A stretch of DNA of 61,616 nucleotides, filler included, from Squatina squatina (Eukaryota), in NCBI GenBank assembly GCA_031763465.1. It is 3 parts of 3 records of this genome, joined end to end, with 100 filler letters (N's around TTAATTAATTAA, not from the genome) between each part and the next. Parts side by side here need not be neighbours in the genome. Positions count along the whole stretch, not along the records: positions 28,263 to 44,233 come from JARFOE010000046.1; 2 more parts are not named here. The stretch is one strand, 5' to 3'. Every line of letters begins with the position of its first letter. Position 1 is the stretch's first letter. Below, one piece after another: positions 30,429-43,948 of this stretch. The notes under the pieces are model-generated. The model did no database searches. It was not told where the DNA came from and saw nothing but the letters and a program-made list of their open reading frames with translations. Made by a program: the position numbers and the translations under genes.

Positions 30429-30584
30429 GTGCAATTTTTGAGGAAACTGCCAGAAAGGATGACAAAATGTTTCGATTAGCCGTGGCTGAAATGAACATGA
30501 ATGAAGAAATATTGCAAAATGAAAAGATAACATTCTCTGTCAGATTTGTTGATTCCAACAATCCTTTTCAAGCTGTTCAAGAGG
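30429..30584 (+). CDS. Delta-type glutamate receptor (GRID2-like), exon 2 equivalent
   Basis: 156 bp, AG/GT bounded; [52 protein letters not shown]. Confidence 0.93.
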
Positions 30585-31035
30585 GTAAGGCAGCAGTTTC
30601 TCAGCTATTTATCTCATTAACCTTTAAATTGGGGAGACTATTGTAGTCTTTCTCATCTTTATTATTGTACATATTTTAAGATTTCCTAACCTGTGGGCTT
30701 CATTTTGATTACGGAAGTCAATTCTACTGAGGCTAAAGGTTAATTTTGTGCTGGAAATTGATTATTTTTGAAGCAATTGTTGGGGCATTGAATATTCATT
30801 TTCATAGTCAGTCAGAACTGTTTAAAATTCCTAGCTTTGTGATTCTGTGGCTCTCACTTTTTAAAAGAAAATCAATAGAGCTTTGAAACAAAATATAGTA
30901 ATCAATTAACCTTTAGTACGAACATCCATGCGATCATCTAGTCTTCCAGAACTTAGGTAAAAGTAAGTTCTATTGTTATTGCTGTAAGCTTCCTACTTAT
31001 CTTAATTTGCTGCTGTGGTGAAGAATAAACATTGT

Positions 31036-31589
31036 GGGGGCAAAATTCCTCACCGGGATCCAGAGCCGGGTCACTTACCGCCAGCCCCGGATCTCTTGGC
31101 CCTGGCACGGAATTCCCAATACCGCCCCGGAAATGAGGCGGAACGACGTCCGCCTCACTTCTGGCGCGGCATGCCAGCGTCTGGCCATTCATGTCGCCAG
31201 CGCCACTCTAGCGACGTCGGGGCACCATGTCTACACACCGTGCACAATGACATCGGACACTGCGTGCTGATACCAGACGTTCCATCCCTTAAAGAGAAGG
31301 GCCGCTGGCCATCCGAATGGCACCCCGCGGCCCGCCACTGGGCCACCAAGGTCCTCAGTGAATGGGCCACCAGCGTGGCACACTGGTGGGTATGCCTGGC
31401 AAGCGGATGGCCCCAATGTGAAATCCCCCGGCTGATGTGCAAAGGGGCTTTGCACCTTGGGGACCCTCTGGGGAATGTCCCGGGAGGCGAGATAGCCACT
31501 TCCCGACGTCATTTTTTTTTTCCTTTTTCGCCCTGTTAGCACTCCTCAGAGGTGCTAACAGGGCAAGAAAATTGGAGAATTTCACCCCC
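31036..31589. mobile_element. Complete GC-rich non-autonomous DNA transposon (Harbinger-type MITE)
   Basis: TIRs GGGGGCAAAATTC / GAATTTCACCCCC with a 3-bp duplication TGT at 31033-31035 and 31590-31592. Confidence 0.85.
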
Positions 31590-31599
31590 TGTAACTATT

Positions 31600-31778
31600 T
31601 TTAATAGTACTCGGCATATTTCCTTCAATTGAACTCTCTGCAACGTTTGACACAGTTGACCACACCATTCTTCTCCAGTGCCTCTCCTCCCTTGCCCAGT
31701 TGAGTGGGAGTGCTCTTGTCTGGTCCCACTCATAACTAGACAATAGTAGCAAGAGAATCTCCTGCAATGGCCCCCCTT
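31600..31778 (+). mobile_element. L2 LINE RT fragment
   Basis: CTCTCTGCAACGTTTGACACAGTTGACCAC (LSA.FDTVDH); homologous to 33570-33720. Confidence 0.8.
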
Positions 31779-32089
31779 NNNNNNNNNNNNNNNNNNNNNN
31801 NNNNNNNNNNNNNNNNNNNNNNNNNNNNNNNNNNNNNNNNNNNNNNNNNNNNNNNNNNNNNNNNNNNNNNNNNNNNNNTATTCAATATTGCATGATTTAA
31901 TTTATAAATTTGGATTGAAATGTGTTTTGTGCTGGATTTTATTTTTGCATTGTGGGAAAAAGGACGATGTGATGGTCAGTGACGGAGGGAAGGCAAGGTG
32001 TGTGGGACTGTTGGTGAATGGGGAATTGAGGTTGAGGTTACTAGAATCGCTCTTGAATCATTTGTTCATGTGGGGCCCGGACAGAAAGG

Positions 32090-41005: not shown

Positions 41006-41010
41006 ATTTA

Positions 41011-41698
41011 GGGCTAGAAATTCATCTCCTGTTGCGCCCCAATAGCGCCTTCGAGGGGCGCGAACGGGGCAAAACAGGACAAAATGGCGCCAGGAGACGG
41101 CAATCTCGCCTCCCGGGGAATTCAGCTAGGGTGTAAAGGCCAGCTGCATTCTGCAATGGGGCTGCGTGTGACGCTATAAAGATGTGCGCCGACCCGTACC
41201 GTGCAGCCACAACCCCCTTTGTGGCCCGCGGACGGGATTCACCCGTGGGATGTGGCCACAGCGACAGGGAAACCTGTTGCTGCAACAAACCTCTTAAAGG
41301 AGAGGACATGTGCACCTGCGGCCGCCATATTTATTTATCGGCCGACAAGAATGATGACGGCCCATGGCCGGATCGGGCCACCATCCAGGCTGGTGGCCCG
41401 GTCGCCGGCATCTCTGGTGTCCCAGTGGCAAATTTGCTCCCGTTTAAGGGAGGCCTGAGCAGTGCTTCTGACGTCAGCGCGCAGATGCCAGAACGCTGTG
41501 TGCAGACGTGGCATGACTGGCATCACTGAGGCCACGCCAACCACTCCAGTTACACCTGGGAGCGAGGCCGTCAGCCTTGCGCCTTGCTCCCGCCGCGGAA
41601 CAACAAATTCTGCGGTGGGCGGGGCAGGAGCCAGCACGAGAAATGCTGGTTTCTGCCCCGTGAATGCCCCAAAGGGATGTGAATGAATTTCTCGCCCC
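41011..41698. mobile_element. Complete GC-rich Harbinger-type MITE
   Basis: TIRs GGGCTAGAAATTCAT / ATGAATTTCTCGCCCC, flanked by TTA at 41008-41010 and 41699-41701 (PIF/Harbinger target-site duplication). Confidence 0.88.
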
Positions 41699-42777
41699 TT
41701 ATGCAGTGGCTGTAAACAAAAATAGTAGTAATATAATGGTTCTTCTTGTAAAATTAAGATAGATTTTAAAACATAATTGTAATGAGAGTATTCATTTTAA
41801 ATAAGCCCGTTTTAACTTATAAAGTAAATTGGACCTCCTTGGTTGTTATGAAGATTGTGCCATTTTCTTTCTCAGATACTTCCAAAGGTAAACTTTCACT
41901 CCAAGCTGTAGTTTGGGGTTCCAGTGAAGTAGAACCACATGCACTTTGTTCCCTCCTGCTTAGCTGGAACTGAAGTAGTCTTGGTCAGAAGAGAGCTGCA
42001 CACATGCCTGGATACCGTTCTGGACAGAACTATCTCACAACAGTTAAAAACGTAAATATGTAGAAGGTGGGGAGGGAGAATTCCCACTCTTGAACCATTT
42101 CTGAATGTACAAAAATGACAAGACAAGAAAACCCCAGCTGGTCCATTTAGTCTGCCCTTGAGATTTGGTGAAGTTCCCCACGGGTTCCAGTGCCCTAAGC
42201 ACTGTATAAACCAGGTGTGACATCAAACTAGATTTACACTACATTCAGTATCAAATCAAAATGATGTGATATTACACCCTCGAGGGTGTCTCATTCCACT
42301 TCTTTCCAGAGTGAGGTTGGTCCATAACTCTGGATTTACACTGTCAGTTTAATGTTGGTGCAAAATAAAAATTGCACAACACCTACCCGAAGATGCAGTG
42401 TAAATGTACTGTAAATGTTATCTGTTTATGCAACAGCGGTGCAAATCCGAAGATCAGGATTGCACAGTAGTTAATGATGTAGTGTCAGTATCAGATAAGA
42501 AATTGCACTTGGGGGATATAATTATGCCACATGACTTTACAGAAGAAAAGTGATGTTGGATAGATTACCAAATAGCTAAAAAATAAGTGTTAGTTTTACT
42601 GTTATTGATACTGATGCAGGTTAAACATCTTAGATAATTTTGTGTTCGAGTTATTTTTGCTATGGCAAACCTTTGTGTGAGCACTCCAACCAAACAAAGT
42701 TATGGAGTTAATTTAGAAGTGCTGCTGCTTTGACTAGCCAATTATCTAAATTGTCATTGTTTTTTGGTTAAACTAAG

Positions 42778-42951
42778 GAAATAAATGATGCAGATATTCG
42801 GGAGCTGGCAAGAAGATTGACCGGCAGGTTGACTGTCATTCGGCAAACATTCCCACTGTCAGAAAGCAAGAGCCAGTACTGTTTAAGAAGCAGTCATAGA
42901 TTTTCTTCTGTGGTGTGTAATCCTAAAGATCCCTTCACACAGCATATGGAG
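42778..42951 (+). CDS. GRID2-like, exon 6 equivalent
   Basis: 174 bp, AAG| to |GTAGG; EINDADIRELARRLTGRLTVIRQTFPLSESKSQYCLRSSHRFSSVVCNPKDPFTQHME. Confidence 0.92.
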
Positions 42952-43786
42952 GTAGGGAATATGGCAATAATAGCTTTTAAATGATTTTACTCTTTATGTG
43001 CACATAATTTTATTTCTGTCTGATGTTTTGATCAAAAGATAATTATAGATCTAAGTAGAGCTGTGGTAATTAAGATTCTATAAAAAAAATCTAATATTGT
43101 GAATCATTTTTAAAGTTAGCCTGAATATTTATTGAATACATACACACTATACTTCCAGATGCTGAAAACGACTAACAGATANNNNNNNNNNNNNNNNNNN
43201 NNNNNNNNNNNNNNNNNNNNNNNNNNNNNNNNNNNNNNNNNNNNNNNNNNNNNNNNNNNNNNNNNNNNNNNNNNNNNNNNNGAGGGCGGTGAATGTGGAG
43301 CAAGGAGAGCAAAGAATGCTCAGGTGAAGATTGAAATCCTTGTGAAAAAGGAGTGAGTTGCTCAATGCAGTGGCTGAGGGAAGGAATAAGGGAGTGTGTC
43401 TCAGGACCGGTGGAATTTGGGTTGGTGCTTGGGGAGCAGCAGAAAATTAGGATTTTAATGCAGAGTCAGGAAGGGTGAAACGGTTAGGTGCTTTAATTAG
43501 GATATTCTATAGAGTCCTCTTGTTGGTGAACTTATTTGATATTATTAATGCACATGGTGTGGAATCCTCAGAGACCTTTAATGCTGCTATCAAAGTGCTA
43601 TCTCAGAGGACTGATAAATCCTCATACTCAACTTTTATAGATGTGGGTGGAAGAATCCATTACAGAAATTACATGCTTGTCTTTGGCTGAGGAGTTGCAT
43701 TAATCTCTAGTTCCCTTGTGTCAGGGGACTCATCTTTTCGATATAAAATTTTTGATGAAATCTGTTCTTTGATCTAATCTATACAG

Positions 43787-43948
43787 ATCTCCAATCTCTA
43801 TGTATATGACAGTGTTTTGCTGCTGGCTGATGCCTTCCATAAGAAGCTAGAAGATCGAAAATGGCACAGCATGGCTAGTCTGACATGTATAAGAAAAAAT
43901 TCTAAGCCGTGGCAAGGTGGAAAGTCTACGTTTGATGCAATCAAAAAG
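43787..43948 (+). CDS. GRID2-like, exon 7 equivalent
   Basis: 162 bp, AG/GT bounded; [54 protein letters not shown]. Confidence 0.94.

Follow-up and report, generated by a model that had tools for sequence, protein, structure and literature searches.

Evidence for a third delta-type glutamate receptor gene in cartilaginous fishes, from amino-terminal domain exons of Squatina squatina

Introduction

Do the two delta glutamate receptor genes, GRID1 and GRID2 (encoding GluD1 and GluD2), account for all the delta receptors of the jawed-vertebrate ancestor, or was there a third? The question is raised by five exons of the shark Squatina squatina (GenBank assembly GCA_031763465.1), which lie in a 61,616-nucleotide stretch of joined DNA parts (hereafter, the window), within the part from record JARFOE010000046.1 (positions 28,263 to 44,233). 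A preliminary description of these exons had proposed that they belong to a GRID2-like gene that may be a further paralog, retained in cartilaginous fishes from genome duplication (i.e., an ohnolog), and that its altered amino-terminal domain (ATD) could change cerebellin binding. Here we find that the gene is, almost certainly as judged from sequence comparisons, a third GluD paralog distinct from both GRID1 and GRID2, for which we use the working names GRID3 and GluD3. Residues are numbered as in GluD2, via a 1007-residue lizard GRID2 that was checked at ten landmark sites.

Results

All five exons are on the plus strand and flanked by AG/GT splice sites, at 30429..30584 (156 bp), 34774..35058 (285 bp), 36703..36908 (206 bp), 42778..42951 (174 bp) and 43787..43948 (162 bp); joined, they make 983 nt or 327 codons with no stop and encode a GluD ATD, just as the preliminary description had it. 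The 156-bp exon, the second coding exon by its position in homologs, includes the cerebellin-contact residue E61, and the 162-bp exon carries the cerebellin-binding loop (R345, W347, S349, M350), which is identical to that of GluD2. The 285-bp exon matches Pfam ANF_receptor (E 2.7e-7) and, among solved structures, GluD2 (E 1.6e-42) more strongly than GluD1 (E 3.8e-30). Membership of the delta (GluD) family follows from the ATD being nearest to GluD1 and GluD2 and from the position of the gene inside the vertebrate delta clade; an Atlas search provided the family assignment only. The gene in the window is a fragment that consists of ATD exons only, and a scan with three full-length orthologs revealed no signal-peptide exon, no 18-codon exon and no post-ATD exons in the window. 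The 18-codon exon, found in all seven models of the clade described below, is expected between 36908 and 42778, in an intron with four N gaps. Since N gaps interrupt all four introns between the five exons, intron sizes are unreliable, and short introns were rejected as a property of the gene for the same reason.

All five exons have their nearest match in the same small group of cartilaginous-fish proteins (hereafter, the third clade). That is, identity to the clade vs. shark GRID2 is 48-51/51 vs. 39/51 for the 156-bp exon, 85-89/94 vs. 62-63/94 for the 285-bp exon (49/94 for GRID1), 64-67/68 vs. 39/68 for the 206-bp exon, 50-56/58 (for the four clade models with this exon) vs. 29-32/58 for the 174-bp exon, and 48-54/54 vs. 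43-45/54 for the 162-bp exon, or 86-100% to the clade and 50-83% to the GRID2 of the same species overall. A named mammalian GRID2, that of the badger, shows 37/51, 64/94, 43/68, 36/58 and 45/54 over the same exons (62-83%), which agrees well with the earlier estimate of about 60-80% per exon and of a gene nearer to GRID2 than to GRID1. Over the ATD of the window, identity is 91-97% to the four orthologs compared, 66-69% to GRID2, and 56% to GRID1. The simplest alternative is that the gene is the plain GRID2 of this shark, or a chimera assembled from exons of different genes, for which N gaps in every intron between the exons would leave room. However, because each exon is nearest to the same clade (5/5), the five-exon model is not a chimera of paralogs, and three species that have the clade gene have a conventional GRID2 as well; these results, together with the three-clade tree (below), refute this alternative, to which we attach practically no credence.

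The members of the third clade were recovered by a word-seeded protein search with the 285-bp exon, which returned, among the best 120 of 130 matches, seven cartilaginous-fish proteins at 90-95% identity, followed by the next best proteins at 70-71%. These are the RefSeq "glutamate receptor ionotropic, delta-2-like" models of Chiloscyllium, Rhincodon, Heterodontus, Hemiscyllium, Rhinoraja and Mobula, and a UniRef entry of Callorhinchus, i.e., four sharks, one skate and one manta ray, plus one chimaera. All seven are orthologs of the window gene, the RefSeq names having been assigned automatically, and no paper was found that presents them as a third paralog; sturgeon and paddlefish copies with the same label fall inside GRID2. 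One ortholog (P0005) has the architecture of ATD, ligand-binding domain (LBD), transmembrane domain (TMD) and C-terminal domain according to Pfam, and matches solved GluD2 with E=0 over residues 23-888. The clade gene is not the only GRID2-like locus in these relatives: a conventional GRID2, 66-67% identical over the 285-bp exon, accompanies it in Chiloscyllium plagiosum, Heterodontus and Callorhinchus, and Callorhinchus has all three GluD genes (rows P0008, P0053 and P0077), its GRID1 being 52% identical over that exon. Among the 186 named rows listed from two such searches (best 120 of 130 and best 120 of 189 matches), seven are nearest to the clade, all from cartilaginous fishes, and none of the 159 listed bony-vertebrate rows (counted from source names; no coelacanth row included) belongs to it. 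From these sequences, the third gene was likely lost in bony vertebrates.

Phylogenetic analysis placed these proteins in a clade of their own. In a 38-row tree under a site-heterogeneous model (rows picked by name to span taxa, leaving out fragments, redundant isoforms and unnamed rows), GRID1, GRID2 and the third clade each received 100/100 support, and trees of the ATD only and of the LBD and TMD only recovered the same three clades at 100/99 or higher. When the tree was rooted with nine distant homologs, the third clade was sister to all jawed-vertebrate GRID2 (100/100), on a stem of 0.38 vs. 0.14 for GRID2, while the cyclostome-like rows, with one named lamprey gene, had support of only 51/37 for their position. 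Approximately unbiased (AU) tests under LG+G4 rejected the grouping of the third clade with shark GRID2 (p = 2.6e-7) or with GRID1 (1.2e-5), as well as a grouping of GRID1 and GRID2 that excludes the clade (2.4e-6). As judged from these protein trees, the third clade split from GRID2 before cartilaginous and bony fishes diverged, and the tree check proposed at the outset thus placed the window gene outside the GRID2 clade. Full-length trees are distorted because ray-finned GRID1 models carry two C-termini, apparently from alternative last exons, one of which lacks the PDZ tail (P0131, P0133, P0138, P0156, P0180, P0193 and P0197). These alternative isoforms also explain why the full tree hinted at a second, hidden GRID1 gene among ray-finned fishes, which we consequently rejected.

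It could be argued that the third gene is a GRID2 duplicate born within the cartilaginous fishes that evolved fast and whose long branch is pulled outward in trees, and both the restriction of the gene to cartilaginous fishes and its long stem would fit such a history. This is contradicted by the AU result for shark GRID2, by the grouping of shark with bony GRID2 under the site-heterogeneous model and in both domain partitions (100/99-100), and by diagnostic sites of the clade, ten in the ATD and seven in the LBD/TMD, that match GRID1 and not GRID2; accordingly, we consider it very unlikely. The residues originally singled out as GRID1-like fared less well as markers, being mostly ancestral or uninformative: E34 (in IFEE) is common to GRID1 and lamprey, D84 (in CDL) is also found in 9 of 13 GRID2 rows, and Y328-D329 (in YDSV) is invariant in all groups.

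With regard to its origin, the third gene would, with good probability, be the partner of GRID2 from the second genome duplication (2R), lost in bony vertebrates; that is, the ohnolog part of the original proposal agrees with how the clades branch, with the separate chromosome and with the unequal rates. In both species that could be compared, based indirectly on sequence lengths, the clade gene and GRID2 are on different chromosome-sized sequences, and thus the former is not a tandem copy there. Alternatively, the gene could have arisen on the jawed-vertebrate stem by duplication of a single gene or of a segment, since the tree says no more about the split than that it preceded the divergence of cartilaginous and bony fishes, paralogon synteny was not obtained from the supplements searched, and the sample has one named cyclostome gene. 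The different sequence from GRID2 (2/2 species) speaks against this smaller event, as does the location of GRID1 and GRID2 in the NK paralogon, where they occupy two of the four arms and leave two empty (PMC3112091), and the faster evolution and loss of the gene fit a loss-prone subgenome, 2R having been an allotetraploidy with biased loss (PMC8302630). On this evidence, we think a smaller duplication is unlikely.

No description of a third vertebrate GluD was present among the literature matches listed from a full-text search that covered neither subscription journals nor gene-tree databases, and the words shark, Callorhinchus and lamprey do not occur in the main texts of two ionotropic glutamate receptor phylogenies (PMC10861852, PMC6307864). 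Similarly, "grid" is absent from the main text of a catshark atlas (PMC11979771), grid genes have no match in the text of a skate electroreceptor preprint (bioRxiv 10.1101/274449), and the supplements of PMC10115646 (part), PMC8302630 (3,999,998 characters) and PMC10620051 gave no match for chromosome location or expression of the clade gene; the supplement of PMC11589584 has Grid1 only. A skate "Grid1-2" was rejected as the third gene, its identifier neighbors being what we take to be GRID1-region genes.

The suggestion that a diverged ATD changes cerebellin binding or selectivity did not hold up well. The GluD1 contacts named in PMC10840383 map to D24, E61, R345 and W347, of which the last three are present in the window and in 7/7 clade models, and D24, which is outside the window, is present in 6/6 elasmobranch models (the N-terminus of the chimaera model differs). 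Among 183 ATD sites fixed across GRID1 and GRID2, 21 differ in all clade members, and an indirect effect, or one through the ATD dimer, is conceivable; however, none of the 21 is at a named contact, the binding loop is the same as in GluD2, and no two of the three paralogs agree at position 60. Because the diagnostic changes miss the contact residues, ordinary bridging of cerebellin (Cbln) and neurexin is the default, and altered binding appears improbable. From these alignments, the third-clade ATD also shows the same degree of conservation as the ATDs of GRID1 and GRID2 (chimaera-shark identity of 89% vs. 89% and 86%, respectively). The distinctive changes are instead in the gate, the ligand pocket and the C-terminus.

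The data on these three regions come from the predicted proteins of other species; none of the three is in the window. The gate motif SYTANLAAF reads (S/T)YTANLTAI in the clade, i.e., A653T and F655I in 7/7 models; among the other jawed-vertebrate rows in which the motif is present, 150 of 151 carry alanine at 653. The adjacent lurcher site, A654, is unchanged, and a natural lurcher allele was rejected, the threonine being at 653 rather than 654. Position 653 is a pore constriction in human GluD2 (PMC12520249), and A653T in GluA3 favors the closed state, reducing kainate efficacy and raising the half-maximal effective concentration of glutamate about 3-fold (PMC5639461). In the pocket, T525 and R530 are kept in the 6/6 models that cover them and W741, D742 and Y770 in 7/7, while A686E (7/7; 0 of 151 other matched rows) and E450V (6/7) are changes and Y496 is variable. 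Out of the five residues tied to inactivity of vertebrate delta receptors (PMC10861852), Y613, K694, N720 and P806 are retained, leaving A686 as the one changed. The tail differs from GTSI in all seven models, reading S(S/T)FL in six, and identity to GRID2 over the C-terminal domain is just 33-35%. The S(S/T)FL sequence remains within the class I PDZ pattern.

With its 39 N runs, the window is a patchwork, and an N-run scan showed that linkers of the same form (44 N, a 12-base stop spacer and 44 N) bound the gene block on the left (28163..28262) and on the right (44234..44333), the latter 285 bases after the last exon. FMN2, found elsewhere in the window, and the third GluD gene are on sequences of different lengths in both species compared (114,672,370 vs. 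87,762,412 in Hemiscyllium and 170,995,155 vs. 190,342,219 in Mobula birostris, respectively); hence, the flanks are not synteny, and a synteny reading of them was rejected. The large first exon of FMN2 is at 5782-7939 on the minus strand, broken by an N gap, with best identities of 85-86% to sawshark and sevengill shark, which suggests a shark source, perhaps a squalomorph. At 8981-10555 (minus) there is a rhodopsin-family G-protein-coupled receptor, presumably CHRM3-like, with both halves matching 7tm_1; its third intracellular loop contains an in-frame TAA (9413-9415), which may be a sequencing error, a variant or a sign of a pseudogene. The block that holds FMN2 and this receptor also has a lone macoilin exon at 22314-22505 (plus; Pfam E 1.6e-29) that could represent a macoilin paralog or a false join. 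A separate block carries exons of an EAG-family potassium channel with Ion_trans matches at 49643-53710 (minus), which we take to be KCNH5. Within the first intron shown of the delta receptor gene is a decayed DDE_Tnp_4 (Harbinger-type) transposase fragment (32395-32934, minus), and degenerate repeats related to it, without a Pfam match, are at about 38000-40700. Finally, a GC-rich stretch with CAG-type repeats at the window edge (61400-61616) looks like a promoter or first exon; the minus-strand frame tested there had no Pfam match.

Discussion

The explanation that we favor, and regard as likely when taken as a whole, is that the third GluD gene encodes a synaptic organizer acting through Cbln and neurexin with a pore that is harder to open. 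GluD3 would, with good probability, be a postsynaptic tetramer like GluD1 and GluD2, whose ATD grips cerebellin and thereby bridges to presynaptic neurexin. Its LBD, with the alpha-amino-acid anchors kept, probably closes on glycine or D-serine with a shifted affinity, a step for which the balance is tipped only slightly in favor. The threonine at the pore-facing gate position 653 may hinder opening, and it is an even call whether GluD3 signals mainly without current; equally poised is the idea that it would signal through the changed class I PDZ tail, recruiting different scaffolds. A more specific version, which we consider unlikely with its two parts taken jointly, is that GluD3 splits the two debated jobs of delta receptors, keeping synapse organization by cerebellin while its gate is re-tuned and its ligand preference differs, and that this sister from 2R, found in cartilaginous fishes only, is used in a distinct circuit, e.g., an electrosensory cerebellum-like nucleus.

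It is also possible, albeit doubtful in our view, that GluD3 is an active channel, made ligand-gated (e.g., by glycine, alanine or gamma-aminobutyric acid [GABA]) or leaky by the gate and pocket changes. A686, changed in 7/7 models, is one of the five sites at which the vertebrate residue silences a starfish GluD (PMC10861852), a placozoan receptor with glutamate at the A686 motif position responds, in the form of a facilitating mutant, to glycine, D-serine, alanine and GABA (PMC13648236), and several GluD variants in M3 are constitutively open (PMC10840383). In contrast, the lurcher site is unchanged, the GluA3 precedent for A653T is a closing one (PMC5639461), the other four inactivity residues are retained, and 6/7 models lack E450, a residue linked to the potency of GABA.

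Several points weigh against the organizer explanation, which we nonetheless prefer. All the evidence on gate, pocket and tail is from predicted proteins of relatives and none from the window, and the supplements searched contained neither expression data for the third gene nor its expected paralogon location. That bony vertebrates lack the gene is concluded from word-seeded searches (best 120 of 130 and 120 of 189 matches) with no coelacanth row. Threonine 653 is tolerated elsewhere, namely in the delta gene of lamprey and in a single GRID1 model of a catfish (rows P0121 and P0200), in which a change that is pathogenic in GluA3 either arose anew or is ancestral; GluA3 A653T still conducts (PMC5639461), and F655I could compensate for A653T. 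The fifth inactivity site, A686, is changed. Finally, one of the seven models has another C-terminus and fish GRID1 has alternative last exons, and the third gene may likewise have a GTSI isoform.

Compared to known receptors, the third clade is sister to GluD2 and conserves its cerebellin contacts, Q618, T657, R530 and D742, as well as the calcium-site residues E531, D535 and D782, but is encoded by a separate gene on another chromosome-sized sequence and has an altered gate, A686E, E450V (6/7), C-terminal domain and tail. With GluD1 it shares the architecture, the cerebellin loop and ancestral residues such as E34; yet ATD identity to the window is 56%, grouping with GluD1 is rejected, and the equivalent of E450 is lost in 6/7 models. 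The human GluA3 variant A653T (PMC5639461) is the same Ala-to-Thr change at a pore-facing position beside the lurcher site. It is, however, a disease allele of an AMPA receptor, whereas in the third clade the change is fixed, together with F655I, across chimaera, sharks and rays.

The novelty is tempered by the fact that the protein models were already in databases as "delta-2-like" and that retained ohnologs are common in cartilaginous fishes. For shark and skate neuroanatomy, it is important to note that Grid2 serves to mark the principal cells of cerebellum-like structures in skate (PMC6230378), and a second Grid2-like gene could be mistaken for Grid2. More broadly, the third gene means that the jawed-vertebrate ancestor had three GluD genes rather than two, which implies that bony vertebrates have lost one. 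It is still disputed whether delta receptors work as channels (PMC12520249), and a natural paralog in which a pore constriction and the pocket carry fixed changes while the cerebellin surface is intact provides residues that can readily be swapped in tests. If the two jobs are indeed split in GluD3, cartilaginous fishes would provide a natural experiment on whether opening of the GluD channel matters.

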